A DNA stretch of 64,000 bases from an uncultured Eudoraea sp. (lineage in GTDB: Bacteria; Bacteroidota; Bacteroidia; Flavobacteriales; Flavobacteriaceae). Made by a program: the position numbers and the translations under genes. Below, in pieces: positions 10,610 to 34,010 of this stretch. Below the pieces are notes generated by a model that was not told the origin of the DNA, ran no database searches, and saw only the letters and a list, made by a program, of their open reading frames with translations. How positions within the stretch are numbered: position 1 is the first letter of the stretch; every line of letters starts with the position of its first letter. Where the stretch lies: contig CAZWPZ010000044.1 in NCBI GenBank assembly GCA_964636005.1, positions 9,694-73,693 on the forward strand, written 5' to 3'.

Positions 10610-10640
10610 CAGGAATACTTTCTTTAACGGCGCATTTGTT

Positions 10641-12706: not shown

Positions 12707-12707
12707 T

Positions 12708-13592
12708 TTAATCGAATAAGTCAGAAGATAAATATCTATCCCCGCGATCACAGATAATGGATACAATGGTACCTGAAGATAAAGTTGATGCAAGTTTCAA
12801 TGCTGCAACTGTGGCACCTCCACTACTCATTCCAGCAAATATTCCTTCTTCTTTTGCAAGCCGTTTCGCCATATTTCTTGCTTCTTCTTCACTTACTTCT
12901 ATAATTTGGTCTACTTTGTCTCGATTAAAGATTTTTGGCAAGTAGGCCTCGGGCCACTTCCGAATTCCCGGAATTTTAGAATTATCGGTGGGTTGTACTC
13001 CTACAATAGAGATTTGGGAATTTTTCTCCTTCAAATAGGTAGAGGTACCCATAATTGTACCAGTAGTACCCATGGACGACACAAAATGCGTAACTCCTTC
13101 TTTGGTATCCCTCCAAATTTCTGGCCCCGTGCTTTCATAGTGTGCCTTCCAATTATCCTCATTGGAAAATTGATTAATCATATAATATCCCTCTTCTTTC
13201 ACTTTTTTTTCCGCATAATCTCTGGCACCTTCAATACCTATTTCGGATGAAGTGAGGGTTACAATAGCACCGTAGGCACGCATGGTTTGAACGCGCTCTT
13301 TTGTCGAATTCTCTGGCATCACAAGCTCAATATTGAGGCCATATAAACTCGCAATCATAGCCAGGGCTATACCTGTATTACCACTTGTCGCTTCAATTAA
13401 TCGGGTGCTACGATCAAAATCTCCTCTTTCTAACCCTTTAACTATCATGTTATAAGCGGCCCTGTCCTTTACACTGCCACCTGGATTATGTCCTTCTAAT
13501 TTAAAATATAGAGACACATTAGGGTTCGTATTTAGGGTTTTGGACAGTACAAGTGGTGTGTTACCAATTAAATCCGTAAGTCTATTAGACAT
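12708..13592 (-). CDS. cysK: cysteine synthase (O-acetylserine sulfhydrylase)
   Basis: Motifs KLEGHNPGGSVKDR (PLP lysine), TSGNTGIALA and SSMGTTGTIMG. I could not decide between CysK and CysM. Confidence 0.9.
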   Translation of the reverse strand: MSNRLTDLIGNTPLVLSKTLNTNPNVSLYFKLEGHNPGGSVKDRAAYNMIVKGLERGDFDRSTRLIEATSGNTGIALAMIASLYGLNIELVMPENSTKERVQTMRAYGAIVTLTSSEIGIEGARDYAEKKVKEEGYYMINQFSNEDNWKAHYESTGPEIWRDTKEGVTHFVSSMGTTGTIMGTSTYLKEKNSQISIVGVQPTDNSKIPGIRKWPEAYLPKIFNRDKVDQIIEVSEEEARNMAKRLAKEEGIFAGMSSGGATVAALKLASTLSSGTIVSIICDRGDRYLSSDLFD

Positions 13593-14382
13593 TAGGTAAG
13601 GTTTTTATTTTAATATCTGGCTTGTGAAAAACAGTTGAATTTGGTGGTACAGAAGAGGTTATCCATGCATTTCCACCTATTACAGAATTTTCGCCAACTA
13701 CAGTTTCTCCACCTAATATAGTAGCATTTGCATAGATGGTGACATTGTTTTCTATGGTGGGATGTCTTTTCGTTTTTTGTAGGCTTTTTGCAACATATAA
13801 GGCCCCCAGTGTTACGCCTTGATATATCTTAACATTATCCTTAATTATAGCAGTTTCACCAATAACCACCCCCGTAGCATGATCAATAAAAAAAGATTTT
13901 CCAATCGTTGCGCCAGGGTTAATGTCGACTCCAGTTTGCCTATGTGCATACTCTGTCATTAAACGAGGAACCAACGGAAAGCCTTTATTGTAAAGTTCAT
14001 GAGCCAGTCTATAGATAGCAATTGCATAAAAACCAGGATAGGCCATATACACCTCTTCTAAAGAAAGGGAGGCAGGATCACAATTTGCAATAGTATTGGC
14101 GTCTAAGTTGAGTTTTTCGAGGACATCAGGGAGCTTTTCCAAGTAATTTTCCCAAATTTTTGAACATGGCTTTTCAACATCCCAACAGGCTAATTTTACT
14201 AGTCCATCAAACTTACTTTCTAAAATATCTATGTTAGATTCCACTGGAGTCTCAATATCAAAAAGAGTAAGAAAGAGTAAGTCTGTAAATTCTTCTGCGG
14301 CACGTTTTAGACTATAGCGTAGATTGGGTTGTATTTTATGGTTTTTTATCTTTTGAACGATGATATCTTTATTCATAATCAA
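13585..14382 (-). CDS. cysE: serine O-acetyltransferase
   Basis: Motif DINPGATIGKSFFIDHATGVVIGETAII and hexapeptide repeats. It overlaps the cysK start by 8 nt. Confidence 0.88.
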   Translation of the reverse strand: MIMNKDIIVQKIKNHKIQPNLRYSLKRAAEEFTDLLFLTLFDIETPVESNIDILESKFDGLVKLACWDVEKPCSKIWENYLEKLPDVLEKLNLDANTIANCDPASLSLEEVYMAYPGFYAIAIYRLAHELYNKGFPLVPRLMTEYAHRQTGVDINPGATIGKSFFIDHATGVVIGETAIIKDNVKIYQGVTLGALYVAKSLQKTKRHPTIENNVTIYANATILGGETVVGENSVIGGNAWITSSVPPNSTVFHKPDIKIKTLPNV

Positions 14383-14478
14383 GGGTTGATGATCAAATTT
14401 AACTATTAATTAAAAAGGCCTACTTTAAAAAGGTTAACTTTAGCATAATTTTAATAATGACAATAATATTCCAAATTC

Positions 14479-15150
14479 ATGAAGCTTTCTAAAGATATTT
14501 TACTCTTTTTATCAACCTTAGAGAAGAACAATAACAGAGAATGGTTTACAGAAAATAAAGCGCATTTTAAGGAGATTGAGGGGAAGGTTAAAAGTTTTTA
14601 TAACTATTTGGCCGAAAATATGAAGGAACATGATGATATAGAGAAGTTAAAGATGTTTCGAATCTACAGGGACGTTAGGTTCTCTAAAGACAAAACACCT
14701 TATAAAGCCCATTTTGCTGGTTCCATGTCTCGTAATGGTGCACAATTGAGAGGTGGTTATTACCTACAAATAAAGCCAAAAGCAACCTTTATTGCCGCTG
14801 GCTTTTGGCAGCCCAACAAAGAGGATCTCTTTAGAATCAGAAAGGAATTAGAATTAGATGCCTCTGATTTTAAAGCTGTTATTGAGGACTCTGCCTTTAA
14901 AAAAATCTGGGGTACTCTTGAAGGGGAGGAAGTAAAAACTGCGCCTAAAGGTTTTAATAAGCTAGATCCCAATATCGCTTTAATACGTAAAAAAGGATAT
15001 ATTTTTACAAAACACTACAGCGATAAGGAAGTTTTAGATCCAGGTTTTGCACAGGAAGTAAGTTCGGCTTTTCGCAAGATGAGACCCTTTTTTGATCTCA
15101 TGAGTGAAATTTTGACCACTAACTTAAATGGAGAGTCCCTATTGGACTAG
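14479..15150 (+). CDS. DUF2461 (TIGR02453) family protein
   Basis: Hallmark motif FRIYRDVRFSKDKTPYK. Confidence 0.72.
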   Translation: MKLSKDILLFLSTLEKNNNREWFTENKAHFKEIEGKVKSFYNYLAENMKEHDDIEKLKMFRIYRDVRFSKDKTPYKAHFAGSMSRNGAQLRGGYYLQIKPKATFIAAGFWQPNKEDLFRIRKELELDASDFKAVIEDSAFKKIWGTLEGEEVKTAPKGFNKLDPNIALIRKKGYIFTKHYSDKEVLDPGFAQEVSSAFRKMRPFFDLMSEILTTNLNGESLLD

Positions 15151-15549
15151 TGCAACGGTGTCAAAAACCTGGACCTGATCTTTTAATCTATCAATTACCA
15201 TGGCCATCATCCTTTTATTTAAGGCAGAAGAATTCATTATATAAGTTGCATACTCTTCTACTGTAAATTGACCAATAATGATACCCTTTAGTGCATTTCT
15301 AAATTTGATATCCTTCTGGATAGCATTTTCAATGTACTTTAATTTAAGATCTATCCTCAGTTCATAAAAAGCATTCTTGTGCTTGGAAATATAGTTTCTG
15401 AATACTTCGATTAAGAGGCTATTTTGTAACTTAATTATTGGTCTTAGAGTCGCATTCTGAAACCTTTCATCAGGCGACATGTTGGGGAATATTTTTGCTT
15501 TTGCCAAATTGGGTCGTATTCTCAGAAGTTGTGAGCTGCGTTCTTCCAT
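15139..15549 (-). CDS. hypothetical protein
   Basis: 136-aa ORF with normal composition. Convergent 12-nt overlap with the previous gene. No motif recognised. Confidence 0.45.
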   Translation of the reverse strand: MEERSSQLLRIRPNLAKAKIFPNMSPDERFQNATLRPIIKLQNSLLIEVFRNYISKHKNAFYELRIDLKLKYIENAIQKDIKFRNALKGIIIGQFTVEEYATYIMNSSALNKRMMAMVIDRLKDQVQVFDTVALVQ

Positions 15550-15861
15550 ATTGGTAGTTTTTATAAAATTAGAGAATAAGACAAGGATTCGATTAGGGAT
15601 ACAAATTACTTGTCAACTGGGTTATAAACATTTTTTGAGCATGCCAACTCTATTGACGCAGTGAAATAGTTCGACCTGTATTTGGGGAATTATATGTCTA
15701 AGACAGACCCCTGCAGAAGGCCTTGTGGAGCTCACTTATTCTGGAAATAAAGAATAATTAAAAGCTTTCATACAAGGTAGAATACAGACTTTTTCCCTCA
15801 ACAATCCGCTATTTTAATTTATTTTTACTCTCTGATTAACAGCGGCTTATAGTGTTTTATC

Positions 15862-18538: not shown

Positions 18539-20281
18539 TTGAAGTCAAAAAATCTACTTTCCCAACTAACCCAACTAGAAACTTCTTTAAATAGCTTCTC
18601 TTTCGAGGAGCTATCAGCAAAAGAAGCAAGTAGTTTAAAAAAGTCCTATGATAAATTCAAAAGACAATTGGAATTGCGAATTTGGGGTGAAAACCCTCCT
18701 GAAGAGTGGACTAAGAAAACAGAATACCCAGCTATCACAGACGCCAAGTATATAGAAAATATAATAGCAAAGGTAAGTCATGAAATGCGTACACCGCTTA
18801 CAGGAATAATGGGCTTTACGGAGTTATTACGCCAAGGCAACCTAGACAAGAATGAATTGTTTCAAGTAAATGCAATTGCCTCTTCGTCCAGACAATTGCT
18901 CGCTGTTCTCAATGAGCTATTAGAGCATTCCAAGCTTGTTATGAATAAATCAGAGGTTGAAATTATAGATTTCAATTTTTACGAACTTATTCAGGATGCT
19001 ATTCATCTTAGCCAAACCCTTTTGATAGGGAAAGAGGTGCGGTTGCAAGTTGATGTCGACAAAAATATACCCGAAGTTCTAAAAGGCAGCCCATCCAAAC
19101 TTTCTCAAATCCTTTTGAACCTCTTGAGTAATTCCATAAAGTTTACTAAGCATGGAAGCGTCAGAATTCTTGTAAAGCTTTTAAACAGAAGTTCGAATAG
19201 AATAAAATTACGAATTGTAGTATCCGATTCCGGGATAGGAATTGCTAGGAACGACTTAGACAGGATATTTGAGTCTTTTGAACAGGTTTATCCAAAAGAA
19301 TCTGGAAACTACGGAGGTATCGGTTTAGGTCTAAGTATTGTAAAACAGATAGTGGAACAACTAAATGGGGTGATCTCTGTAGAAAGTAAAGTAGGGGTGG
19401 GGACCTCTATTGCAACAGAACTTGACCTAGAAGTAGGATCATCCTCTGGCAGACAACCTTCTACAGTTAAAAATAGCTCTTCAATCAAAGGAGCACAAAT
19501 ATTGATATTAGAAGACAATCCCTTAACCAGGCAATTACTAGAGCAACGCCTTAAACTATGGGGATGCAAAGCACACCTTGCCGATAACGCCATTTTTGGA
19601 TTAAAAAAATTGGATACAACTTCGATTGATGTAATCCTCCTCGATTTAAAAATGCCATTGCTTTCTGGCTATGAGGTTGTAGGTAAAATTAGGAATCACC
19701 CGAATAAGTCCGTACGGAAAATCCCCATTATAGCGATAACTGCGGACGACTCAGCACAACTGCAGAAATTGTTGCAATCAAATTCTATTAACGACTTTAT
19801 TCTCAAACCATTTGACCATGCAGAGCTACACCTAAAGATTGAGAATCAATTAAGAGATATAGAGGCATCTGGTAATGTCGCGATTTCATCAATAGGTTCT
19901 GTACATAAAGTGGACACCAAATCTATATACGAGAATCTGGAAAACACTTTTATTTCTTGCGAAGGCGATATGGAGGTATTAAAAGAAATTGTAGCCATTC
20001 ATAAAAGAAATATTCTTGAATTTATTGGTAGGGTTAGGTTAGGAATAAAAACAAATGATTTTGATTGTATTCTGGATGCCATACACAAAATTAGATCCGG
20101 TCTCTCCATGATGGCTTCTCAAGATCTTCAAAATCTGGTATCCAATATTCATGCAGTGGCTAAGACAATAAAAGACATTAATAAAGTTCAATTTCTCTAT
20201 GATAGATTTCTTATGGAATATCCCAAAGAAGAACGGGCATTAGACATGGCCGTGAAGGACTTAGAAAACAAATTAAAGTAA
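18539..20281 (+). CDS. hybrid sensor histidine kinase / response regulator with C-terminal HPt
   Basis: H-box SHEMRTPL, G-boxes DSGIGI and GGIGLGLSI, receiver LLDLKMPLLSG, HPt-like AIHKIRSGLSM. TTG start. No TM or sensory domain is visible. Confidence 0.87.
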   Translation: MKSKNLLSQLTQLETSLNSFSFEELSAKEASSLKKSYDKFKRQLELRIWGENPPEEWTKKTEYPAITDAKYIENIIAKVSHEMRTPLTGIMGFTELLRQGNLDKNELFQVNAIASSSRQLLAVLNELLEHSKLVMNKSEVEIIDFNFYELIQDAIHLSQTLLIGKEVRLQVDVDKNIPEVLKGSPSKLSQILLNLLSNSIKFTKHGSVRILVKLLNRSSNRIKLRIVVSDSGIGIARNDLDRIFESFEQVYPKESGNYGGIGLGLSIVKQIVEQLNGVISVESKVGVGTSIATELDLEVGSSSGRQPSTVKNSSSIKGAQILILEDNPLTRQLLEQRLKLWGCKAHLADNAIFGLKKLDTTSIDVILLDLKMPLLSGYEVVGKIRNHPNKSVRKIPIIAITADDSAQLQKLLQSNSINDFILKPFDHAELHLKIENQLRDIEASGNVAISSIGSVHKVDTKSIYENLENTFISCEGDMEVLKEIVAIHKRNILEFIGRVRLGIKTNDFDCILDAIHKIRSGLSMMASQDLQNLVSNIHAVAKTIKDINKVQFLYDRFLMEYPKEERALDMAVKDLENKLK

Positions 20282-20285
20282 TTCA

Positions 20286-20657
20286 ATGGAGCAGAAGGAT
20301 GTTGTACTGGCAGAAGATGATGAACTCTTGGGAGCGTTACTGAGCTATCGCCTGGAGAAGGCAGGTTATAATGTTTCCTTGTTGGTTGATGGAAAAGAAG
20401 TTAGAGAACATTTGCAGAACAACAAACCAGACATCATAGTAACCGATATAATGATGCCTTATTATTCAGGTATTGAATTGATAGATTATGTGCGTCAGGA
20501 AATAGGACTATCCACCCCTATAATAGTAATATCTACCGCAGACAATGAGGTAAACGTATTGAACGCTTTTCAATTAGGAGCGGATGACTTTTTACCTAAG
20601 CCCATACGTCCGGCTGAACTTTTGGTAAGAATGGAAAGAATATTGTGTAGTGAATAA
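20286..20657 (+). CDS. single-domain response regulator (receiver only)
   Basis: 123 aa. Motifs AEDDE, DIIVTDIMMPYYSG, VISTAD and LPKP. Confidence 0.88.
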   Translation: MEQKDVVLAEDDELLGALLSYRLEKAGYNVSLLVDGKEVREHLQNNKPDIIVTDIMMPYYSGIELIDYVRQEIGLSTPIIVISTADNEVNVLNAFQLGADDFLPKPIRPAELLVRMERILCSE

Positions 20658-23060
20658 ATGGTACTAAAAAGTCTAACGACATATCACCTTACATGGCTCT
20701 TAGATGTGCCAAAGATTCATACAGATCTACTGTGGGATTTTACCTTCTTGTTTGCAGGCTTTGGGCTCTTATACTTCTTTGGTATTTTTTTCTATAAACG
20801 TAAAATCAGGAAGACAGCAGAACTAATTGCTATTCGAAAAAAGGATGTTGCTCCAATGATTTCTACCTTTCTTTTCTATGATTCTAAGGATAGTAAAGAA
20901 GAAAAAAGAAACTACGTTGAACTAAAAATTGCTATTCGGGAACTATTGAAGGATGCCCGTAACAAGCAAGTAATAGCAGAAGTGCTATTGGATCTTCAAA
21001 AGGATGTATCCGGGGATGCTAGGAAAAAAGTGTATGCACTTTACCAGGAACTGGAGTTACATATTGAAGCGATAAAGATGCTTAAAAGCTGGCGATGGGA
21101 AATCGTCTCTAAAGGTATTCTGGAGCTAACACAAATGAGGGTAACCAGTTCTTATGGCTTTATCAAGAAATTTATTAACGACAAAAGGGGTATAATAAGA
21201 AAACAAGCGCAAATTGCTGCGGTAAGCCTTACGCACGAAGGCATTACTTTTTTTCTGGATTCTGCTCGCTATAAAATTTCGGAATGGCAGCAATTAAAAA
21301 TCCTGGAGGTACTACAAAATCTAGAAGGATTTAAACCACCTAGCTTTAAAGCATGGTTAACTTCTGCTAATCGGGATGTTGTTTTGTTTGCCCTCAGGCT
21401 CATAAAACATTACAGTCAAATGGATGCAGGAATGGCAATCATTCCTTTGGTCAGACATAAGAATGATCATATTAAGTCAGAAGCCTTGTTCTGTCTTAAA
21501 GAGTTTCGCATCGTAGAAGCAAAAAAAGTGGTAAAATCCATTTTTCCTAAATGTAAGGTCGAAATTAAAATAATGATACTTGATCTAATTGCACATCTGG
21601 GAGATCAAGACGACCTGAACTTTCTCAATACTCAAAAAAGAAAACAAAACAGTTTTATTGTTAAAAACAAAATTGACAGCGCAATAAATACCATCCAACC
21701 AGGAACAATAGAACCAACAGCAGAAATGGATAAAACTTTAGACGAAGAAACTTATTCCGAGAATGAGCCTAAAGACATTTTGGAAAACCCTGAAGTTATG
21801 AAAGAAACGTCTCCATCAAATCAGAACAATAACTCTAATCCAGATCCAGAGTTCGAGAATACTCAGGAAGAAAATGTAATAAACTCCGAAGAGGTAGAAG
21901 ATGAAGAAATATTTAATCTGTGTTTTAAGGAAGAGCTCGAAGATATTCTCAACGATTATCGTTCAGAATCGGAATCTTATGAGATACTCCCCTTAGACTT
22001 TCTTCCCGTAGTTACGGAAGAGAATGAGCTAATTGTAGAAGAGAGAGACCTTGCTGCAGAAGTGGAGAATGAAACACGTCTCCATTCCGAAAACGAGATG
22101 GAAGATACCCTAGAAGAGGTCCATTTTCAGCTGCAATTGGAAGATCTTTTGGAAGGAATAAAAGGGGAGATAAACGAAGAGGACCTAGTTACAACAGAGG
22201 ATAGGGTTGATGCCTCATTTTTACCGCTTATAACAGAGGAAGAGAGTGAAGAGGTGTCCGAAGACAACATCTGTCTGGAAGATCTATTCGAGTACGAAGT
22301 CTCTTATGAAACCATCGCCCTGGAGGAAGACTATTTTGAAATTTATAAAGACCTTTTAAAGGTAGAATGGGTTCGGAAAGATGAAGATATTTTACCATTT
22401 TCAGATGCACCCATCGACTGGAATGATCTCACACAAAGTGACCAAAGCATAATTAGCAATAAACCACCAATATCAAGTTCAAATATGATGATCACAGAAG
22501 AAAAACCAAAGACAGTTGTTCCCGAATCTACTGAGGAAACTTCTCTTAACTGCTTTAGCATCTTTGCCGAAATGTTCAGAGATAGCGACAAGGAATCAAA
22601 ATTAATTCTACTCGACGAAATTCTCGCAGTGGGAGAAAAAAAAGAATTGGAATTCCTTAAAATCGTCAAGAGAGATAAAGAAAAATCTGTTCGAATAAAA
22701 GCAAATAAAATATTTCTGGAACTGGAGAGAAAACTTAACAAAGAAGAATCAAAAAATGCGGTAAGCGCTGATCAAGTAATCATTACACCATCCCAAACTA
22801 CCATAGACAATACAGCAGTATTGAATAACTCAACTATAGATCAAAGTGTGAATGAACAAGAACAATCGCTTCAGGATTTCTTGGAAATAGAATTTGATCT
22901 GAGTATGGTAGACAAGGAGCTTCCTCATAGTGAAAACACGACTACGGCTGATAAAAATTCCCCGGATAAGACCCCAAATGAAATCAAAAGCAAAACCGAC
23001 AACACACTGCTAGGGAGTATCAAAAGCATTACCCGTAAACTTTTCGATAAAACATCTTAA
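20658..23060 (+). CDS. membrane-anchored HEAT-repeat protein with long acidic disordered region
   Basis: One N-terminal TM (WDFTFLFAGFGLLYFFGIFFY). Helical repeat region at aa 90-340, E/D-rich segment at about aa 355-590, and a second HEAT-like unit at aa 630-690. The start abuts the REC stop. Confidence 0.7.
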   Translation: MVLKSLTTYHLTWLLDVPKIHTDLLWDFTFLFAGFGLLYFFGIFFYKRKIRKTAELIAIRKKDVAPMISTFLFYDSKDSKEEKRNYVELKIAIRELLKDARNKQVIAEVLLDLQKDVSGDARKKVYALYQELELHIEAIKMLKSWRWEIVSKGILELTQMRVTSSYGFIKKFINDKRGIIRKQAQIAAVSLTHEGITFFLDSARYKISEWQQLKILEVLQNLEGFKPPSFKAWLTSANRDVVLFALRLIKHYSQMDAGMAIIPLVRHKNDHIKSEALFCLKEFRIVEAKKVVKSIFPKCKVEIKIMILDLIAHLGDQDDLNFLNTQKRKQNSFIVKNKIDSAINTIQPGTIEPTAEMDKTLDEETYSENEPKDILENPEVMKETSPSNQNNNSNPDPEFENTQEENVINSEEVEDEEIFNLCFKEELEDILNDYRSESESYEILPLDFLPVVTEENELIVEERDLAAEVENETRLHSENEMEDTLEEVHFQLQLEDLLEGIKGEINEEDLVTTEDRVDASFLPLITEEESEEVSEDNICLEDLFEYEVSYETIALEEDYFEIYKDLLKVEWVRKDEDILPFSDAPIDWNDLTQSDQSIISNKPPISSSNMMITEEKPKTVVPESTEETSLNCFSIFAEMFRDSDKESKLILLDEILAVGEKKELEFLKIVKRDKEKSVRIKANKIFLELERKLNKEESKNAVSADQVIITPSQTTIDNTAVLNNSTIDQSVNEQEQSLQDFLEIEFDLSMVDKELPHSENTTTADKNSPDKTPNEIKSKTDNTLLGSIKSITRKLFDKTS

Positions 23061-24487
23061 TGGATAGTGGTGTACTCCATATAATAATAGAGTATCTAAA
23101 CGTAATATTTTTACTGTTTACCACTATACTATTTACCATGTTTAGTGTAATGGCCTATTTATCTACTCGCAACTCCTTACATTATAAACATAAAAATAGT
23201 TTTGTAGATCTGTCTAAAGTCATGGCTTCTCCTATGGCTCCCGGAATTACCATAATAGCACCAGCATTTAATGAGGGGCTAACCATTGTAGAAAATATAA
23301 GGTCCTTGCTTTCTCTGCAATATGTCAACTATGAGGTCATGGTAGTAAACGACGGGAGCAAAGATGATACCCTGGCGAAGATGATTGAGGCATATGACCT
23401 GGTTCCAATAGAGTATACACCCGATCCGGATTGGCGTTCGAAGCCCATACGAGGTGTTTATAAATCTAAACATCGATCTTTTGATAAACTAACCGTAATT
23501 GATAAAGAAAATGGAGGGAAATCGGATGCCCTTAACACAGGTATCCATCTTTCCAGAAATCAATATGTTGGTTGTATTGATGTAGATTGTCTTTTACTTC
23601 CAGACGCATTGTTACACGTGGTAAAATCATTTTACCAAAGAGCAGAGAAAAAAGTTATTGCCGTTGGTGGAGTTATACGTATTGCTAATTCGTGCAGAAT
23701 TGAAGGCGGCATGTTAAAGGAAATTCGACTTCCCAAAAACTGGCTGGCAAAGTTTCAACTTCTAGAATATACCCGATCGTTTCTTCTGGGAAGAATGGCT
23801 TGGGGCAGAATAGACAGTCTCTTAATCATTTCAGGAGCTTTTGGATTCTTCGACAGAGAAATTGCTTTGGAAGTTGGTGGCTATGACACCAATACCGTTG
23901 GAGAAGATATGGAAATCATCTTTAGGATGAGACGTTATATGCACGAAAAAAAGGAGCCTTATACGGTGGAATACATTCCCGATCCCTTGTGTTGGACAGA
24001 AGTTCCAGAAAGTACAAAAATCCTGATAAATCAAAGAGATAGATGGGCTAGGGGGAATCTGGAAACACTGTATAAGCACAAGGACATGTTTTTTAATCCC
24101 AAGTTTGGGAGACTAGGTATGTTGAGCTATCCCTATTGGTTTTTTTATGAATGGATGGCGCCAATATTAGAATTTTTAGGATTCTTTTCGATCATAGCTT
24201 TCTATTTTTTGGGAATATTAAACATTGAATTTTTTATAGCTATAACCTTTATGGTTTATGCCTTTTCTATAATGTTTTCACTATACGCGATATTATGGGA
24301 TGTCTACTCTTACAACCAATATACAAAGACAAAAGACATCCTTATTCTGATTTTCTGTGCATTAATTGAACCCATTAGTTTTCATCCTCTTGTAGTTTGG
24401 TCGGCTATTCGCGGTAATTACAAAAAGCTTTTTAAGATTCAATCCGGCTGGGGTTCTCAGGTGCGAAAAGGATTTGCAAAGACCTAA
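23060..24487 (+). CDS. processive family-2 glycosyltransferase (PgaC/IcaA/BcsA-like polysaccharide synthase)
   Basis: Motifs VNDGSKDD, GCIDVDC, TVGEDME and QRDRWARG (QxxRW). TM helices flank the catalytic domain. TAATG overlap with the upstream gene. Confidence 0.87.
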   Translation: MDSGVLHIIIEYLNVIFLLFTTILFTMFSVMAYLSTRNSLHYKHKNSFVDLSKVMASPMAPGITIIAPAFNEGLTIVENIRSLLSLQYVNYEVMVVNDGSKDDTLAKMIEAYDLVPIEYTPDPDWRSKPIRGVYKSKHRSFDKLTVIDKENGGKSDALNTGIHLSRNQYVGCIDVDCLLLPDALLHVVKSFYQRAEKKVIAVGGVIRIANSCRIEGGMLKEIRLPKNWLAKFQLLEYTRSFLLGRMAWGRIDSLLIISGAFGFFDREIALEVGGYDTNTVGEDMEIIFRMRRYMHEKKEPYTVEYIPDPLCWTEVPESTKILINQRDRWARGNLETLYKHKDMFFNPKFGRLGMLSYPYWFFYEWMAPILEFLGFFSIIAFYFLGILNIEFFIAITFMVYAFSIMFSLYAILWDVYSYNQYTKTKDILILIFCALIEPISFHPLVVWSAIRGNYKKLFKIQSGWGSQVRKGFAKT

Positions 24488-24492
24488 TAAAA

Positions 24493-26856
24493 ATGGAGAA
24501 TAATAGTCAAATAGAAGAAGTAATGCCTCGTAAAACCCTCAAGGATTTTATAAGGCTCATTTTATCCTTTTATGTGGGCTTAATTGCAATTGCTTTATAT
24601 CAAAACACCTATTTATTCTTTAAAGGGGTCTTGTCTGGGATAATAAACAAATCGTTCTTTCTTCTTCTCCTGCACCATAGTGGATTCACCGCATTAATTG
24701 GACTTTTTTTAGCTTTTTTATTTAACTATCTGGAACGAAAGAAGCCAACTTGGGGCTTTAAAGTATGTGGAATTGTATTTTTAGTTATACTTCTTGTGGA
24801 ATGCCTTTTGAGCGACTATTATATCCGAGAATATGATATTTTGGGATCTGGTTTTGTGTCCAGTTATTTTGATCAAACCACGGTTTTGTACTTTATATCG
24901 GCCACCATTATTATTGGCACCCTATCCTATGCAATACTACACTTCTCGTACAAATTTTCTAAGTCGCTCTATCGAACTATCAGTAGAATGTACCCTTTTA
25001 CAATCATATTACTAAGTTTATTTTTAGCTACACTCACCAGTCCGAAAAGACCAGTAAATGAAAATAAAACCCAATATTTGGTAACACATCTGATAAAGGA
25101 GGCTATTGATTTTAATAAGTACAAAGGGACTGTAGAATATCCTTTGCTAAGAGAAAATGTACCAGATTCTAGCCTTGTACCATACTTTAATCTAAAACAA
25201 GAAAAACCAAATATTGTTTTAATTTTGGTTGACGGACTGGGGAATAATTTTTTAGGAAAACAAGCTAAGTATCCGGGATTTACCCCATTTTTAGATTCCC
25301 TGTCTAATAAATCCCTTTACTGGGACCATTTCTTGAGTAATGTCCGGGATAACTATGCTTCCATACCTGGCGTATTGGGTTCTTTACCTTTTGGGAAACA
25401 AGGGCTGACCAATGCAGACAAACTACCTAGAGGGCAAAGTTTAATTAGTATATTAAAAGGGAACGGGTATAAAACAAGTTTTAATTTCGGTGGGAATAGT
25501 GCTTTAAACAAACTTGATAGGTTTTTATTTGATCAGAACGTAGACCATCTTCTTGACGATAAAGGTTTTGGTTCCTCTTACGTAAAACAAGAGGCCGACG
25601 CTGCTGGAATTTCGCTGGGCTATCCAGACAAGGCTCTTTTTTCAAAATGGCTGAAAAACACTTTGCCAGGGAACACCCCACGTTTGGATATTTTTTTAAC
25701 ACTTAGTGGGCACAAACCTTATTTAATACCAGATAAGGCGGTTTATGAGAAGCGTGTAGCATTGCATGTATCTACTGAACTGAAGAATCATTCGCAAAGT
25801 AAATTAATCGCGAATAATAAGGGTCTATTTGGAAGTATGCTATATACCGACGAAGCACTACGCGATTTTTTTAAGGCCTACAAAAAAGATTCCAGTTATC
25901 AGAATACCATCTTTATTATTTCAGGGAGTCATAATACTACAGAACTTCCCGCATCCGATGATATTGAACGATATAGAGTGCCTTTGATTATAAGCAGTCC
26001 TCTTTTAAAAGAATCAGAACATTTTAGTAGTCTAACTTCACATATGGATATTGCCCCATCTCTACTAGGGTTACTGGATATTACTTATGAGGATATAAAT
26101 GTACCTGACGAAATTTCTTGGTTAGGTACTGGCTTAGTACACAAAGACATTTTTAAAACTTCCAAAAAGATTCCCTTATTAAGGAAGAAAAACACGCATA
26201 TTGATTTTATTTCTGGTCACTACTTTATAGGAGACGGGGATTCCTATGAACTATCACCACAATTGGCACAAAATGCTTCTGAAATTCCCGATAAGGTAGA
26301 ACAAGACTTTAATTACTTTAAATCGGTCAATACCTATGTTATAACAAATAATAGAATAATACCACCAGACCCAGGTAGGAATACTGCTATGACAAGCCCA
26401 ACTCCAAGCAAAGAAGAAATCATTTGGATCAATAGTGTATTCAGCGGCAGTAACTACGACAATGCTTACCTAACTGCTAAGGCCTTAGCTTTTGATGGTA
26501 GCAGGGACAAGGCACTTATTCTGGCCAATTATATTCTATCGCAAGTACCCGGACATGTAGACACGGAAATACTCATTGGAAGAATACAAGCATGGGAAGG
26601 TAATTTTAATCAATCCGAAACTATTCTACAAAATGTAATACGCAAATATCCAGTGTATGCCGATGCCTATGCCGCATTACTCGATACGTATTTCTGGTCC
26701 GATCAATTCGATCAATTAAACGAAATAAGACAGCAGTTGTTACGGAATGGAATTGACCATGCAGAAATTTGGGAGAAGCTAGAACGAGCACAGTCAAGGC
26801 AAAAGCAACTACAAAACGAACTAAATAAGGAAGATTCTCAAACACAAACCAGATAA
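24493..26856 (+). CDS. polytopic alkaline-phosphatase-superfamily (sulfatase / LTA-synthase-like) protein with C-terminal TPR
   Basis: About 5 N-terminal TM helices. Sulfatase-type core starts at PNIVLILVDGLGNNFLG. TPR-like tail from about aa 654. Confidence 0.78.
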   Translation: MENNSQIEEVMPRKTLKDFIRLILSFYVGLIAIALYQNTYLFFKGVLSGIINKSFFLLLLHHSGFTALIGLFLAFLFNYLERKKPTWGFKVCGIVFLVILLVECLLSDYYIREYDILGSGFVSSYFDQTTVLYFISATIIIGTLSYAILHFSYKFSKSLYRTISRMYPFTIILLSLFLATLTSPKRPVNENKTQYLVTHLIKEAIDFNKYKGTVEYPLLRENVPDSSLVPYFNLKQEKPNIVLILVDGLGNNFLGKQAKYPGFTPFLDSLSNKSLYWDHFLSNVRDNYASIPGVLGSLPFGKQGLTNADKLPRGQSLISILKGNGYKTSFNFGGNSALNKLDRFLFDQNVDHLLDDKGFGSSYVKQEADAAGISLGYPDKALFSKWLKNTLPGNTPRLDIFLTLSGHKPYLIPDKAVYEKRVALHVSTELKNHSQSKLIANNKGLFGSMLYTDEALRDFFKAYKKDSSYQNTIFIISGSHNTTELPASDDIERYRVPLIISSPLLKESEHFSSLTSHMDIAPSLLGLLDITYEDINVPDEISWLGTGLVHKDIFKTSKKIPLLRKKNTHIDFISGHYFIGDGDSYELSPQLAQNASEIPDKVEQDFNYFKSVNTYVITNNRIIPPDPGRNTAMTSPTPSKEEIIWINSVFSGSNYDNAYLTAKALAFDGSRDKALILANYILSQVPGHVDTEILIGRIQAWEGNFNQSETILQNVIRKYPVYADAYAALLDTYFWSDQFDQLNEIRQQLLRNGIDHAEIWEKLERAQSRQKQLQNELNKEDSQTQTR

Positions 26857-26876
26857 ACAATCAAAAGGGAAGTATA

Positions 26877-28106
26877 GTGATAAAACAATCTGTATTAATG
26901 GTAGTTATATGCTGGATTAACTGCGCCCTAATGGCGCAGGACATGGCCTATAATGGGAATCCGGATAATTCCTTTTTTATCGCTAGAGATTTAGCATTTA
27001 ATGGCGACCATGTTGCAGCGAGAGATACGCTCTCTTTAGTACTCACCAAATACCCAAATTACACAGATGTAAGAAGTCTTTTAGCAAAGACCCATAGCTG
27101 GGATGGCCATTACGACAGGGCGAGAAAAGAGTTTAACAGAATACTTTCCTCGGACAAAAACAATAAAGAGGTTTGGGTAGCGGCAATAAAGAATGAAATC
27201 TATGCAGAAGACTACTATATCGCACTCGGATTAGCCAATAAGAGCCTTATCTATATTAAAAACGATCAGGAATTGAGCGACCTCCAACAACTGGCCTACG
27301 ACAAAATATATAAAAAGCTGGAAGAGGCCGATCTTATCGAATTGTCTAAAAATGAGAAAGAAATAGGAGTCACAAGAAACAAGTTGGGAGTAATCAACTC
27401 ATTAGATGTTTTTGATATAGTGTATGACCCCATGTTTTTTTCTACATTAGAATATACACGGACAACGGAATTGGGAAAGATTATACCAAGAGTTACCTAT
27501 GCCAATAGATTCAATACCAATGGCTTACAATTTGAGGTAGACTTGTATCCAAAAATATCAAAACGCTTATATGCCTACGCTAATTATGGTTACTCAAATC
27601 ATCCAATATTTCCAAAGCACCGTGCGGGCCTAGAACTATATGCCAATTTACCTAATGCCTATGAGGCATCCTTAGGACTTCGGTATTTAGATTTTCAAAC
27701 GAGTGCAGCAACCATACTAACAGGATCTGCAGGTATGTATACCGGCAATTATTATTTTTCCTTAAGACCTTATCTGACTCCGCGAAAGAATGGACCTCTC
27801 GGTGTTTCGGGCAATGTTCTCGCAAGAAAATATCTCAAGACAAAATATAACTATTTAGGAATAAATCTTACCTATGGCTTTACGCCAGAAATAATTCAAC
27901 TTATTTCAAACAGCGATGTGCTATTATCGGAAACACTGCTTTTTGTAGAATCGCAACAGGTATTTGCGGAATACGCATTTCAGGGGAAGCGAAAACTGAA
28001 TCAATATAGGGCCATGCTAGGGCTAACCAGGCAAGAATTTGTTTTTGAAGCAGGAGAGTTTTTCTACGCAATTTCAGCTGGAATTAGGTATGAAACTAAT
28101 TTTTAA
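26877..28106 (+). CDS. TPR + YaiO-like outer-membrane beta-barrel protein
   Basis: Signal peptide, N-terminal TPR, then alternating-hydrophobicity strands. Ends in the aromatic C-terminus RYETNF. GTG start at 26877. Confidence 0.68.
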   Translation: MIKQSVLMVVICWINCALMAQDMAYNGNPDNSFFIARDLAFNGDHVAARDTLSLVLTKYPNYTDVRSLLAKTHSWDGHYDRARKEFNRILSSDKNNKEVWVAAIKNEIYAEDYYIALGLANKSLIYIKNDQELSDLQQLAYDKIYKKLEEADLIELSKNEKEIGVTRNKLGVINSLDVFDIVYDPMFFSTLEYTRTTELGKIIPRVTYANRFNTNGLQFEVDLYPKISKRLYAYANYGYSNHPIFPKHRAGLELYANLPNAYEASLGLRYLDFQTSAATILTGSAGMYTGNYYFSLRPYLTPRKNGPLGVSGNVLARKYLKTKYNYLGINLTYGFTPEIIQLISNSDVLLSETLLFVESQQVFAEYAFQGKRKLNQYRAMLGLTRQEFVFEAGEFFYAISAGIRYETNF

Positions 28107-28250: not shown

Positions 28251-28349
28251 ATGTTATACGACACCTACGGGGAGGAATATTTAAACTTCCTTCAAGAATT
28301 AAATGAAATTTTAAGTTTAAACGAATTAGCCGAGGTGGATTATTTATAG
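28251..28349 (+). CDS. small acidic peptide, paralogue 1 (32 aa from ATG 28251; the track gives a 60-aa TTG version from 28167)
   Basis: MLYDTYGEEYLNFLQELNEILSLNELAEVDYL. It shares the Y[LM]NFL[QE][ED]LNEILS core with the next ORF despite many synonymous codon differences. Confidence 0.5.
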   Translation: MLYDTYGEEYLNFLQELNEILSLNELAEVDYL

Positions 28350-28385: not shown

Positions 28386-28487
28386 ATGGCAAATCAAAAT
28401 CAAGACAACGCGGCGTACATGAATTTTTTGGAAGATCTCAATGAAATTCTTTCAGATTACGAAATCAGCAGACTTAACTGTTCTTAA
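28386..28487 (+). CDS. small acidic peptide, paralogue 2 (33 aa)
   Basis: Hand-translated: MANQNQDNAAYMNFLEDLNEILSDYEISRLNCS. Below the ORF-track cutoff. Confidence 0.5.
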   Translation: MANQNQDNAAYMNFLEDLNEILSDYEISRLNCS

Positions 28488-28501: not shown

Positions 28502-28540
28502 AAAAAGTAAAAACTCGGAAATTATCCGAGTTTTTTTTTT
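28502..28540. terminator. bidirectional rho-independent terminator
   Basis: Stem CTCGGA / TCCGAG (28514-28530) with loop AATTA. An A-rich run lies upstream and a T10 run at 28531-28540. It serves both the plus-strand EPS/peptide operon and minus-strand rpoD. Confidence 0.75.
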
Positions 28541-31165: not shown

Positions 31166-32677
31166 TTGAGAATACAAACGGATCAGACAGAAAAACAACT
31201 CTACGATTATCAATTACAGGATCTAACTACGATTTTTTCAGAGCTCGAGAAGTCTGCTAATGATGTAAACCTTCTATATCAACTTCCAACTGGAGGGGGT
31301 AAAACCGTTGTATTCTCTGAAATTGCAAAAAGATATATAAAAAAGCACAACAAAAAAGTAGTTGTTCTTACCCATAGAATTGAACTCAGTATACAAACTT
31401 CAAAAATGTTAATGGGTTTTGGAGTTAATAATAAGATAATAAATAGTGAGGTAAAAGATTTTAAAGATCAGGATGAGTACATGTGCTTTGTAGCCATGGT
31501 CGAAACGCTAAACAATCGCTTACAAGAAGACCTTATAGAATTGCATAATGTTGGGTTGGTGATTATTGATGAAGCGCACTACAACTCCTTCCGAAAGCTT
31601 TTTAAATACTTTGAAAAATCTATCATATTGGGGGTTACTGCAACACCATTAAGCTCGAATATAAAGCTTCCCATGAAAGACAACTACAGTAAACTTATTG
31701 TAGGGGAGTCCATAGAGTCTTTGATAAAGAAAAAGTTTTTGGCCAAGGCCAATATGTACAGTTATGACGTAAGTCTTCGATCTTTAAAACTTGGTATTAA
31801 CGGAGACTATACTGTAAAATCTTCTGATGAACTCTACAGTAATCAAAACATGCTCGGAAAGCTCTTGACTGCTTATGAAGACATAGGCAAGGGTAGTAAA
31901 ACGCTTATTTTTAATAATGGTATCAACACTTCCCGATATGTCTATGAGATTTTCAAAAAGAAAGGATACCCAATTAGACACTTGGACAACAAAAATAGTG
32001 CCTCGGAGAGGAGGGAAATCCTAGATTGGTTCTCACAGACAAAAGACGCAATTCTTACCTCTGTGAGTATATTAACCACTGGTTTCGATGAACCCGGTGT
32101 CGAAACCGTAATTCTAAATAGAGCAACCCGATCTCTTACCCTGTATTTTCAGATGATTGGTAGAGGCTCTAGAATTCTACCAAATAAAAGTAGTTTTACT
32201 GTAGTCGATTTAGGAAATAATATCTCACGATTTGGCATGTGGGATGCTCCAATAGACTGGCAAGAAATATTTTACTTTCCCGATTTTTATCTGGAGAATA
32301 TTAAAAATGATGAAGAAATAGAGCGCGACTTTGTCTATGTGATGCCTCCTGAATTACAGGCAGAATTCAAAAATTCCAAAAACATAACTTTTGATATTAA
32401 GGCGGAATACAAGAAGGTATTTGCTCAGGGTCTTAAATCTAAAACAGTTCTCGAACGAAGTATAGAGCAGCACGCTGAAATTTGTGTTGAAAATAGCGAA
32501 GATGTATTCGATGCGAGAATATTGGCGAAAAAGTTAAAAGAAGAGATTGCGTATAGGGTAAGGCAATATTCTTACTGTATTATGAACAACACAAAGAATT
32601 ATAAGGAGTGGTTGGAAGAGGACTACGAACGAAAACTTCGGCTTAGTATTTCGCAAAAATTTGCCTCCAGGTTATAA
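31166..32677 (+). CDS. superfamily-2 DEAD/DEAH-box helicase (type III restriction Res-like core)
   Basis: Motifs QLPTGGGKT, VIIDEAHY, GVTATP and QMIGRGSR. TTG start; there is no ATG upstream of the Walker A motif. Confidence 0.8.
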   Translation: MRIQTDQTEKQLYDYQLQDLTTIFSELEKSANDVNLLYQLPTGGGKTVVFSEIAKRYIKKHNKKVVVLTHRIELSIQTSKMLMGFGVNNKIINSEVKDFKDQDEYMCFVAMVETLNNRLQEDLIELHNVGLVIIDEAHYNSFRKLFKYFEKSIILGVTATPLSSNIKLPMKDNYSKLIVGESIESLIKKKFLAKANMYSYDVSLRSLKLGINGDYTVKSSDELYSNQNMLGKLLTAYEDIGKGSKTLIFNNGINTSRYVYEIFKKKGYPIRHLDNKNSASERREILDWFSQTKDAILTSVSILTTGFDEPGVETVILNRATRSLTLYFQMIGRGSRILPNKSSFTVVDLGNNISRFGMWDAPIDWQEIFYFPDFYLENIKNDEEIERDFVYVMPPELQAEFKNSKNITFDIKAEYKKVFAQGLKSKTVLERSIEQHAEICVENSEDVFDARILAKKLKEEIAYRVRQYSYCIMNNTKNYKEWLEEDYERKLRLSISQKFASRL

Positions 32678-32750
32678 GGTGCATTTTGCCTTTTCCATAT
32701 CCCATAATTCTGAAAAGCGTAATTTTAAAAAAGATAGTTTAGCTTCTTCC

Positions 32751-34010
32751 ATGCCTCAAGAAATACTATTTATAGGTCATACTTGGCCAGAACCGCATGC
32801 CACAGCTGCAGGGAGACGAACTGTGGAGCTTCTTCAATTCTTTACAAATAAAAAAGACAAGGTGACCTTCGCCACAGCTGCCGACAATAGTCTTGAGGGT
32901 TCGATTAAAGAACTGAATTTAGTAGATTGGGTGAAAATTGAATTAAATTCTGATTCCTTCGATAGTTTTATTTTAAAATTAAAGCCTGATATTGTGCTTT
33001 ATGATCGCTTTTTGACCGAGGAACAATTTGGATCTAGAGTCAAGGAAAATTGCCCAGACGCCCTTAGTATCTTAGACACACAAGATCTTCATTCCTTGCG
33101 TATAGCCCGAAAAGAGGCATATCAACAAAACAAAAAATTTATAGTTGTCAACTGGCTTGTTCACGATACTACAAAACGAGAAATCGCCAGTATATTGAGG
33201 GTTGATCTTGCTTTAATCATATCAAAATACGAGTTAAAGTTTTTAAAAAAATGGCTCAAATTACGTTCAAAAAAACTCCTTTACTTACCTTTTTCTACAA
33301 CTAAAAGCACCGAAAAACATCTCGAGAAAAACCAAAATACTTATAGCAATCGGAGAGACTTTATGTTTGTTGGAAATGGGAGGCATTCGCCAAATGTCGA
33401 TGCCGTAATCTGGCTGGTTAAAGAAATCTGGCCGCTAATTGAAGAGGCCATCCCAGAAACTACCCTCCATATATACGGAAAGTATTTTCCTCAAAAAATA
33501 ACGGACTTAATCCGACCGTATAAGAATATCCATATAAGGGGTTGGGCTCCAGACCTACAAAAGACAATGAACCACCATCGGTTAAACCTAATTCCAATAA
33601 CCTATGGGGCAGGTCTTAAAGGTAAAGTATTAGAAAGCATGGAACTAGGTATTCCATTTGTAACAACAGCAATGGGAATCGAAGGCTTTGAAGGCTCTAA
33701 GTATGTAAAAAACCAAGTTTCTGTAGACCCAGCGGGCTTTGCACAAATAGCAGTAGATCTGTATTCCGATGAAGTAAAATGGAGCGAAGCCTTTCTAAAT
33801 GGAGAACGTATGCTTGCCTGTTTACCATCAAAATCTAAATGGGAGCAATGGTTGAATTCCAAGATTTTACGTTTGCAAAAAAACCTGGACAAGCATAGAG
33901 CGCATAATATTCTCGGTAATATCCTTTACCGGCAAGAGTTCTACAGTACTAAATATATGTCTAAGTGGATTCAACTAAAGGAAAAAGGCATACCAAAAGA
34001 CCCATTGTAG
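32751..34010 (+). CDS. family-1 (GT-B) glycosyltransferase
   Basis: Motif GLKGKVLESMELGIPFVTT (EX7E-like). I prefer the ATG at 32751 (MPQEILFIGH); the track start at 32661 would overlap the helicase. Confidence 0.72.
   Translation: MPQEILFIGHTWPEPHATAAGRRTVELLQFFTNKKDKVTFATAADNSLEGSIKELNLVDWVKIELNSDSFDSFILKLKPDIVLYDRFLTEEQFGSRVKENCPDALSILDTQDLHSLRIARKEAYQQNKKFIVVNWLVHDTTKREIASILRVDLALIISKYELKFLKKWLKLRSKKLLYLPFSTTKSTEKHLEKNQNTYSNRRDFMFVGNGRHSPNVDAVIWLVKEIWPLIEEAIPETTLHIYGKYFPQKITDLIRPYKNIHIRGWAPDLQKTMNHHRLNLIPITYGAGLKGKVLESMELGIPFVTTAMGIEGFEGSKYVKNQVSVDPAGFAQIAVDLYSDEVKWSEAFLNGERMLACLPSKSKWEQWLNSKILRLQKNLDKHRAHNILGNILYRQEFYSTKYMSKWIQLKEKGIPKDPL

Follow-up and report, generated by a model that had tools for sequence, protein, structure and literature searches.

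How could the synthesis of a secreted polysaccharide be switched on at a locus in which no component of cyclic diguanylate (c-di-GMP) signalling is recognised? As far as is known, the well-studied synthase-dependent exopolysaccharide systems (cellulose, poly-N-acetylglucosamine, alginate, Pel and Nfr) are switched post-translationally by c-di-GMP. The question is raised by six genes at positions 18539-28106 of a 64,000-nucleotide stretch of DNA, called the window below, from an uncultured Eudoraea sp. (Bacteroidota, Flavobacteriaceae; assembly GCA_964636005.1, contig CAZWPZ010000044.1, positions 9,694 to 73,693 of the forward strand). A first-pass annotation of the bare sequence had described these genes as a compact exopolysaccharide locus controlled by a phosphorelay. 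We analysed them computationally, through gene order, domains, motifs, predicted folds, co-occurrence and gene fusions. We conclude that the locus is probably a widely distributed, uncharacterised variant of the synthase-dependent exopolysaccharide pathway, working like Pga, Bcs, Pel and Nfr. Its conserved unit is a HEAT-repeat protein plus a family 2 glycosyltransferase (GT2), usually accompanied by a receiver (REC) protein; the kinase, the sulfatase-family protein and the YaiO-type barrel are lineage-specific add-ons. A synthase without c-di-GMP control would also matter for Bacteroidota, in which signalling by c-di-GMP may be sparse; this scarcity is not used as evidence here.

The six genes lie on the plus strand with gaps of at most 20 nucleotides (Table 1), and the coordinates of the open reading frames (ORFs), as well as our reading of the junctions, agree with the first-pass annotation. 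A gap of 4 nucleotides separates the kinase and receiver genes, the TAA stop codon of the receiver gene directly abuts the ATG of the HEAT gene at 20658, and the HEAT and GT2 genes overlap in a TAATG at 23058-23062. The two remaining gaps measure 5 nucleotides (GT2 to sulfatase-family gene) and 20 nucleotides (sulfatase-family to YaiO gene). Such coupling of start and stop codons is an operon-like packing of the six genes. No strong terminator-like hairpin occurs inside the block, and a strong bidirectional one downstream, at 28509-28535, likely marks the 3' end of the transcription unit, shared with a convergent sigma-70 gene. The block is flanked by housekeeping genes on the minus strand, an M19 dipeptidase upstream and the sigma-70 gene downstream. 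The domains attributed earlier to each gene were recovered by Pfam and NCBIfam profiles, or through homologues in the case of the HEAT repeats.

Table 1. Coordinates of the six genes and of the downstream hairpin in the window, with the basis of each assignment (TM, transmembrane; TPR, tetratricopeptide repeat; AF2, AlphaFold 2 model; aa, amino acids).
Feature	Position	Strand	Basis
Hybrid histidine kinase, soluble, 580 aa	18539..20281	+	Pfam, NCBIfam alignments, residue reading
Stand-alone CheY-like receiver, 123 aa	20286..20657	+	Pfam Response_reg 3e-26
Membrane-anchored HEAT-repeat protein, 800 aa	20658..23060	+	TM segment, composition, homologues with HEAT_2
Membrane-integrated GT2 synthase, 475 aa	23060..24487	+	Pfam/NCBIfam, invariant columns, AF2, Foldseek
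Polytopic alkaline-phosphatase/sulfatase-superfamily protein, 787 aa	24493..26856	+	Pfam Sulfatase 1.7e-21, TM segments, PDB matches
TPR + YaiO-family barrel outer-membrane protein, 409 aa	26877..28106	+	Pfam YaiO 1.5e-66, TIGR04390 3.3e-55, AF2
Bidirectional terminator-like hairpin	28509..28535	.	11-bp stem, T-runs on both strands; consensus match only

The GT2 has all the features that the first-pass annotation had cited for a processive synthase. Its Pfam matches are Glycos_transf_2, Glyco_tranf_2_3 and Chitin_synth_2, the last of which covers the QxxRW region. The signatures VNDGSKDD, IDVDC, GEDME and QRDRWARG were all found and sit on invariant columns: D98, D174xD176, E282-D283 and Q325-R326-x-R328-W329 do not vary in 31 relatives (alignment at 34-51% identity). 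Hydrophobic segments lie on both sides of the catalytic domain. In the AF2 model (predicted local distance difference test, pLDDT, 90.8; predicted template-modelling score, pTM, 0.90), one N-terminal and four C-terminal helices (347-457) surround a GT-A domain. When the PDB was searched by sequence, most matches were to the nucleotide-binding region at the N-terminus of GT2 enzymes that are soluble or small, which made a fold search necessary. The top Foldseek matches in the PDB were the hyaluronan synthases of a Chlorella virus (CvHAS) and of Xenopus (XlHAS1), with E-values of about 1e-15 and TM-scores of 0.5-0.63 at 14-17% sequence identity, followed by BcsA and chitin synthases. All top matches are channel-forming hyaluronan, cellulose (BcsA) or chitin synthases. 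By its motifs, topology and predicted fold, the GT2 appears to be a membrane-embedded enzyme of the processive type.

The hyaluronan and chitin synthases and NodC also resemble the GT2 in size and helix count. They function singly or as dimers, and have neither a HEAT partner nor REC control nor a porin in the outer membrane. A further possible likeness lies in the flexible C-terminal tail, in which W464 and R469 are invariant and G465 is nearly so. This WG...R pattern recalls the WGTRG gating loop that is essential in CvHAS (PMC11750622), although the WG-x3-R spacing and the C-terminal position differ, and we take it as a lead and not as a demonstrated equivalence. Among named families, the best NCBIfam relatives are PgaC/IcaA (TIGR03937), NodC and CelA. 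Assignment to PgaC/IcaA itself was rejected, with a TIGR03937 score of 147.6 bits against a cut-off of 422.3. The GT2 is 29% identical to E. coli PgaC over 333 amino acids and has insertions of about 26 and about 14 amino acids in the GT-A domain. Judging from the nearest families, its substrate is most likely UDP-N-acetylglucosamine or a related hexose. The closest relatives are found in Eudoraea spp. Between the window and its Flavobacteriaceae orthologues the GT2 is 80-93% identical, against 34-75% for the products of the five other genes, which indicates a far stronger constraint on the catalytic subunit.

The search of the GT2 against 1.84 billion cluster representatives retrieved 1230 relatives at E <= 1e-30. 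Scanning one genome per species gave 80 loci, annotated with the domains of the window and an iterated HEAT profile. This annotation relied on a simple ORF finder, phmmer and the iterated profile; loci of high GC content yield spurious overlapping ORFs, and a possible drift of the HEAT profile was controlled by its positional specificity and by Pfam. When the GT2 is at least 30% identical to that of the window (32 loci), a HEAT gene is adjacent or fused to it in 31 loci and a REC gene lies upstream in 19, with kinase, sulfatase-family and YaiO genes in 5, 6 and 11 loci, respectively. The corresponding numbers for the 48 loci with a more distant GT2 are 1 (HEAT), 0 (REC), 1 (kinase), 0 (sulfatase-family) and 1 (YaiO). 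The sole HEAT-negative locus among the 32 has no upstream DNA, and at least four of the REC-negative ones lie on truncated contigs. The HEAT profile matches 36 of the 4957 ORFs, nearly all of them directly upstream of a GT2 gene, hence its positional specificity is high. The 11 YaiO-positive loci are all from diderms, and YaiO is missing from every monoderm locus (Bacillota, Actinomycetota).

The pair of HEAT and GT2 genes was found in about ten phyla, including Bacteroidota (Flavobacterium, Pedobacter, Chitinophaga, Odoribacter and Bacteroidales), Gemmatimonadota, Verrucomicrobiota, Fibrobacterota, Myxococcota, Pseudomonadota, Actinomycetota (among others a Bifidobacteriaceae genome) and Bacillota (Bacillus caseinilyticus and Sporosarcina). 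The REC gene stands directly upstream of the HEAT gene even in Verrucomicrobiota, Actinomycetota and Bacillota. The synteny check suggested with the first-pass annotation gave a result in two parts: the order of the six genes is kept in five further Flavobacteriaceae genera (listed as Cellulophaga, Ulvibacterium, other Eudoraea, Robiginitalea and Croceitalea), whereas beyond them the core is reduced to HEAT and GT2, usually with REC. Gene fusions were counted in the best 150 of the 1230 GT2 relatives. These include 33 fusions of HEAT to GT2 (for example in Heliophilum fasciatum) and 4 of GT2 to a sulfatase domain (for example in Sphingobacterium thalpophilum and Sediminibacterium roseum), and such natural fusions point to a physical and functional coupling of the partners. 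Single cases were found of a GT2 fused to a YaiO barrel, to TPRs and to a SPOR domain. The first of these corresponds to a protein of 745 amino acids (P0271); a YaiO fusion would be unexpected in an enzyme of the inner membrane and may stem from read-through in gene calling. In the last one (P0244, 860 amino acids), the SPOR peptidoglycan-binding domain is C-terminal. Two loci, one in Chitinophaga (9968-15802) and one in Beijerinckiaceae (8449-14664), have two tandem paralogous GT2 genes after REC and HEAT, followed by a gene for a protein of about 1000 amino acids that combines numerous TPRs with a YaiO barrel at its C-terminus. They may represent a heteropolymer or two-synthase variant.

The HEAT protein of the window has one N-terminal TM segment (about 25-46) followed by a basic stretch, an arrangement that should leave its HEAT domain (about 60-345) in the cytoplasm, beside the GT-A domain, the soluble REC and the kinase. 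Behind it come an acidic region of low complexity (346-640, 30% Asp and Glu) and, at about 641-715, another short HEAT-like segment; Ser, Thr, Asn, Gln and Pro are abundant in the tail. Nothing in Pfam or NCBIfam scored above threshold for this protein, and its match to HEAT_2 (PF13646) is sub-threshold (16.9 bits for a cut-off of 27.7, E = 0.008). HEAT_2 was matched in 21 of 22 positional homologues, with a best E-value of 3.4e-37, and the orthologues in the databases carry PF13646. The HEAT assignment of the window protein thus rests on its homologues. The acidic insert of about 300 amino acids (window 21693-22577) is present in the marine clade, whose proteins have 636-950 amino acids, and is missing from the orthologues of 355-367 amino acids in Flavobacterium and Pedobacter.

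The two genes upstream encode what resembles a phosphorelay. The kinase has the Pfam domains HisKA, HATPase_c and Response_reg. It starts with a short helical region, after which come HisKA, whose His lies in SHEMRTPL, then HATPase_c and REC, and probably a histidine-phosphotransfer (HPt) domain at the C-terminus. At the level of residues, the His box, the ATP-binding boxes, the Asp of the internal receiver and an HPt-like HKIRSG motif are all intact. In the window kinase the HPt domain is below Pfam detection; it is suggested by the HKIRSG motif, by NCBIfam alignments to BarA, TorS and ArcB that reach residue 568 or so, and by a Pfam Hpt match in the Croceitalea orthologue. The stand-alone receiver has a complete phospho-acceptor site (D11, D12, D54, T84 and K105), and Response_reg is its sole Pfam domain, with no DNA-binding or enzymatic output. 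The succession of HisKA, HATPase, REC and HPt, then a separate receiver, would make up a four-step relay like those of ArcB, BarA and TorS. Unlike these, the window kinase has no membrane or sensor domain (no TM-like segment was seen in a reading of its hydrophobic segments), and the terminal regulator lacks a DNA-binding output and is encoded inside a biosynthetic operon. The RECs that adjoin HEAT and GT2 in other phyla match the window REC with E-values of 1e-11 to 1e-47, compared with 1e-4 to 1e-13 for the other RECs of the same loci, and those closest to the window REC are consistently the ones beside HEAT and GT2. The kinases found near GT2 loci have variable sensors, such as the CHASE3-PAS-HisKA-HATPase-REC-HPt protein of a Bacteroidales locus, which fits a module fed by different signals.

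The first-pass annotation had noted the absence of c-di-GMP components and of other polysaccharide machinery, and this was confirmed with Pfam and NCBIfam: no match to PilZ, GGDEF, EAL, HD-GYP, MshEN, a GIL receptor, a deacetylase or Wzx/Wzy/Wza was found in the six proteins and ten neighbours. The GT2 in particular has no PilZ match at E <= 0.01, and its chain ends 18 residues past the last helix. Outside Bacteroidota, the receiver proteins carry extra parts, in the form of REC-REC, of REC-degenerate GGDEF-REC or of a REC with about 220 unassigned residues. The REC-GGDEF-REC protein is encoded at 7597-8880 of a Longimicrobiales locus, upstream of a HEAT::GT2 fusion. Its GGDEF domain is above the Pfam cut-off, but the motif reads AGGEF, a degenerate form, and the place directly before it where an I-site usually lies has no RxxD. 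This single distant locus means that the absence of c-di-GMP-related domains does not extend to the whole family.

The last gene encodes a protein that has a signal peptide if the GTG start is used, and that ends in ...YETNF, the final residue being Phe, aromatic as noted earlier. Pfam recognises TPRs besides the barrel. That the barrel is YaiO-like, as proposed earlier, is borne out by PF19413 (224.1 bits for a cut-off of 23.9) and TIGR04390 (187.5 for a cut-off of 32). BLASTP found no similarity between the window barrel and E. coli YaiO or PgaA, so its membership of the YaiO family rests on profile models. An identical database entry (P0409, 387 amino acids) starts 22 codons downstream (window 26877-26945) and therefore has no signal peptide; the GTG start at 26877 is supported by homologues of 403-418 amino acids. 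The AF2 model (pLDDT 85.6), built on a shallow alignment of Flavobacteriaceae only, has seven TPR-like helices (29-158), a long linker helix and 14 strands (168-408). In Foldseek, BcsC (9b8a) is the top match, PelBC ranks seventh and PgaA (4y25) fourteenth, with TM-scores of 0.31-0.40; the best fit to the barrel is the 14-strand OmpG. The barrels of PgaA, BcsC and PelB have 16 strands, and known polysaccharide porins are 16- to 18-stranded. The analogy with PgaA and BcsC drawn in the first-pass annotation therefore holds for the layout of TPRs plus barrel, but neither for sequence similarity nor for the predicted number of strands. What links the protein to PgaA, BcsC and PelB is a similar architecture, and not homology.

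The sulfatase-family protein has about five N-terminal TM segments, an LtaS/OpgB-like domain at about 235-535 and C-terminal TPRs at about 640-787, and this TM layout puts both the sulfatase-fold domain and the TPRs in the periplasm. It shares the five TM segments and the extracytoplasmic sulfatase-fold domain with LtaS, OpgB and VP1736, the TPRs being an addition relative to LtaS. The nearest sequences in the PDB are VP1736 (3lxq) and LtaS (2w8d), OpgB is a weak match, and there is no BcsG chain among the sequence matches. Across orthologues, the family motifs are (E)GLG, GRT, T..H.P and GDH. The family profile aligns the Thr of GRT with the nucleophile Thr of LtaS, and GDH with the GDH of LtaS, whose Asp and His are metal ligands. 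Cellulophaga, Flavobacterium, a Bacteroidales genome and a proteobacterial genome have canonical motifs. The window protein has VDGLG, RDN, GHKP and GSH, and differs from LtaS by an Asn at the position of the Thr nucleophile (GRT to RDN) and a Ser at that of the metal-ligand Asp (GDH to GSH). Other Eudoraea have GES, (T or S)KKP and GSH; Ulvibacterium has GES, TKSP and GTH; Robiginitalea has RES, SKPP and GSH; and Croceitalea has LDL, LQD and GNK. The nucleophile, the GDH site and the His of T..H.P are thus progressively lost over these four genera, in which the protein is full-length. Judged by the nucleophile position, the fifth protein was rejected as an active phosphotransferase, and its sulfatase-family domain is probably inactive. 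With the nucleophile and a metal ligand lost, the decoration of the polymer by a phosphotransferase, as put forward in the first-pass annotation, is doubtful in this genome; the role is plausible for the family at large. A scaffold role is likelier here, since the protein has kept its full length with the TM and TPR parts. YejM/PbgA, a non-enzymatic relative with a similarly degenerate site, is among the sulfatase-family matches and provides a precedent.

Among known systems, the nearest named family for the synthase is found in PgaABCD of E. coli, which makes poly-beta-1,6-GlcNAc. Both Pga and the locus are synthase-dependent, with a GT2 that has flanking TM segments and the D, DxD, ED and QxxRW motifs, a small or medium membrane partner of the synthase (PgaD there, the HEAT protein here) and a TPR-plus-barrel exporter. 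Unlike Pga, the locus has no PgaB deacetylase, no ORF of PgaD-like size and no PgaD family in the NCBIfam results. Its barrel is of the YaiO family, with 14 predicted strands and no similarity to PgaA, and the linked regulator is a REC with a phosphorelay instead of c-di-GMP. The likeness to the Bcs system for pEtN-cellulose lies in the processive GT2 with a TM channel (from Foldseek), in the TPR-barrel outer-membrane part and in the partner of the alkaline-phosphatase family: structures of BcsA-BcsG complexes have been solved (9fmv, 9b8v), and relatives of the window have GT2::sulfatase fusions. However, PilZ, BcsB, BcsZ and BcsQ/E/R are missing from the locus, the alkaline-phosphatase domain is nearer to LtaS and VP1736 and degenerate, and the barrel is smaller. 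NfrB binds c-di-GMP via a fused C-terminal domain, which has no counterpart in the window GT2 according to Pfam. By description, the NfrB/NfrA/YbcH system for the N4 receptor glycan of E. coli is also similar in combining a GT2 with an outer-membrane component; two reports describe NfrB as locally controlled by c-di-GMP, and the recent recognition of Nfr indicates that synthase-dependent systems are still emerging in model organisms (PMC8669469, PMC8669472). In sum, the locus falls outside PgaC, the Pga accessory set, PilZ gating, the PgaA/BcsC-type barrels and the active LtaS/BcsG-type transferases.

The proximity of yaiO to the GT2 gene yaiP in E. coli, mentioned in the first-pass annotation, was also verified. 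In E. coli K-12 (NC_000913.3, 380069-384616), yaiS, yaiP, yaiX and yaiO form an uncharacterised same-strand string that encodes a deacetylase, a GT2, an acyltransferase (yaiX being split by IS2) and the barrel, and YaiP carries DAD, VED and RWRRW motifs with flanking hydrophobic segments. As in the window, a YaiO barrel is thus encoded in one gene string with a membrane GT2. The differences are that YaiP is 27% identical to the window GT2 over the N-terminal half only, that YaiO consists of the barrel only, with no TPRs, and that the E. coli cluster has the deacetylase YaiS and the acyltransferase YaiX and lacks HEAT, REC, kinase and sulfatase-family genes. These E. coli genes look like a cryptic synthase-dependent polysaccharide system.

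We consider it probable that the locus is a synthase-dependent machine for glycan secretion. The product, the export route, the phosphotransfer from kinase to receiver and the contact between receiver, HEAT protein and synthase would then be as follows. The GT2 would polymerise a nucleotide sugar at the inner membrane and thread the chain through its own TM channel, with the membrane-anchored cytoplasmic HEAT protein as its obligate partner subunit. The soluble hybrid kinase would feed the stand-alone receiver by a His-Asp-His relay, and the phosphorylated receiver would bind the HEAT subunit or the synthase and turn polymerisation on, filling the role of c-di-GMP and PilZ for BcsA or of c-di-GMP for PgaCD. 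The polytopic sulfatase-family protein and the TPR domains would escort the chain through the periplasm to the 14-stranded YaiO-type barrel, the sulfatase-family domain probably serving in this genome as a scaffold and not as a phosphotransferase. We lean towards this complete envelope-spanning mechanism, receiver switch included, by a modest measure. Direct gating of the synthase by the phosphorylated receiver through the HEAT subunit is a step that we propose more tentatively; an action of the phosphorylated receiver on the HEAT-synthase complex would be the most economical reading. The homopolymer and the gating by Asp phosphorylation of the first-pass annotation are inferences.

Several observations weigh against this mechanism and lend something to its rivals. 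REC was undetected in 13 of the 32 loci, so that the receiver is not obligatory, and no REC::HEAT or REC::GT2 fusion occurs among the best 150 relatives. No sensor domain was recognised in the kinase by Pfam or NCBIfam, and the HEAT protein, with its 800 amino acids, may hold cryptic nucleotide-binding sites. As for the product, the GT2 is far below the PgaC cut-off, and the cluster contains neither a deacetylase nor a precursor gene. The model of the YaiO protein has a pTM of only 0.55, and its predicted 14-strand barrel is smaller than known polysaccharide porins. The points on the receiver would fit a HEAT protein with a constitutive, structural role as co-subunit, like that of PgaD towards PgaC and of BcsB towards BcsA, with kinase and receiver acting indirectly (by way of a transcription factor as partner, by serving as a sink for phosphate, or by control of localisation or turnover) and no direct allosteric gating. 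The tighter association of GT2 with HEAT (31 of 32 loci) than with REC (19) or kinase (5), the lack of REC fusions and the extra modules on receiver proteins outside Bacteroidota are in line with it. However, the window REC lacks an output domain for DNA binding or enzymatic activity, its gene runs right up to the HEAT start codon, and its position directly upstream of HEAT in distant phyla is the pattern expected of subunits of one complex; we find indirect action rather unlikely. It is more improbable still that a nucleotide second messenger, c-di-GMP or another, is the proximal activator through a cryptic site in HEAT or between GT2 and HEAT, with the phosphorelay secondary. Sites for c-di-GMP can escape domain models, as does the one at the PgaCD interface, large parts of the HEAT protein have no assigned function, and the Longimicrobiales locus has its REC-GGDEF-REC protein beside HEAT::GT2. 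Against this stand the lack of any PilZ, GGDEF, EAL, HD-GYP or MshEN signal in the six proteins and ten neighbours and the degenerate state of the distant GGDEF, which has no RxxD where an I-site usually lies. As to the HEAT protein, its unassigned part is of low complexity and missing from the short Flavobacterium and Pedobacter orthologues.

The points on product and barrel bear on another explanation, which we regard as unlikely, namely that the product is not a secreted exopolysaccharide but a glycan that is short, anchored in the membrane or located in the periplasm, for instance a glucan of the OPG type (osmoregulated periplasmic glucan), an oligosaccharide like that of NodC or a sugar linked to lipid. 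In that case the sulfatase-family protein would act like OpgB or LtaS, and the YaiO barrel would serve another purpose. The proximity of the sulfatase-family domain to LtaS and VP1736, with its weak OpgB match, would agree with this, as would the 14 predicted strands instead of 16 or more and the presence of NodC and polyprenyl-phosphate GT2s among the weaker matches of the GT2. Yet QxxRW is invariant, and the fold match to channel-forming hyaluronan synthases, BcsA and chitin synthases spans the TM region. TPR plus barrel is a hallmark of synthase-dependent export, with BcsC as best Foldseek match, YaiO co-occurs with the GT2 in diderm loci only, and the sulfatase-family active site is degenerate here although the protein was kept full-length. 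Finally, the six genes could be neighbours by chance or through local gene order, without forming a functional unit. The flanking genes for the M19 peptidase, sigma-70, DUF6155 and a helicase are also syntenic in the closest genera, hence conservation within Flavobacteriaceae alone is not decisive. This explanation is hardly credible, as it is effectively refuted by the HEAT::GT2 and GT2::sulfatase fusions and by the co-occurrence counts; in about ten phyla, REC, HEAT and GT2 recur together within unrelated flanks, whether or not sulfatase and YaiO accompany them.

A few features around the six genes deserve mention. Two tandem paralogous mini-ORFs of 32 and 33 amino acids lie on the plus strand between the YaiO gene and the terminator (28251-28349 and 28386-28487), with products MLYDTYGEEYLNFLQELNEILSLNELAEVDYL and MANQNQDNAAYMNFLEDLNEILSDYEISRLNCS. 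One or more copies, with hardly any change in protein sequence, are found in Eudoraea, Robiginitalea, Croceitalea, Cellulophaga and Ulvibacterium, and none in Flavobacterium, Pedobacter and the other distant loci. Further away are genes for a GT4-type glycosyltransferase (32661-34010, plus strand) and a hexapeptide-repeat acyltransferase (13585-14382, minus strand), both of which are also syntenic in Cellulophaga, where they belong to the general order of genes. The scan of distant loci covered the six domains of the cluster, and these two flanking genes are therefore not counted as parts of the system.

In line with the first-pass annotation, no characterised representative and no description of the HEAT-GT2-REC module was found in the literature searched, in which YaiO appears almost solely as an E. 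coli PCR marker. A paper on the lipocone superfamily, considered as a candidate description, proved irrelevant. A broader and more speculative possibility is that REC-HEAT-GT2 forms an unrecognised, phylum-spanning class of processive synthases, with HEAT as an obligate co-synthase, the phosphorylated receiver as on-switch and a YaiO porin in diderms. If true, there would be a second way of gating polymer secretion beside c-di-GMP, and the yaiS-yaiP-yaiX-yaiO genes of E. coli would be what remains of yet another synthase-dependent exopolysaccharide system, a cryptic one. Considering the 1230 cluster representatives and the wide occurrence of the family, from marine Flavobacteriaceae to gut Bacteroidales and Odoribacter, soil Chitinophaga and Gram-positive lineages, a single characterised member would annotate thousands of genes, and it would give the YaiO barrel family a function. 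The decay of the sulfatase-family active site in one clade offers a natural experiment on polymer decoration. For abundant marine heterotrophs, such work would open a route to their matrix, adhesion or particle-attachment polymers.

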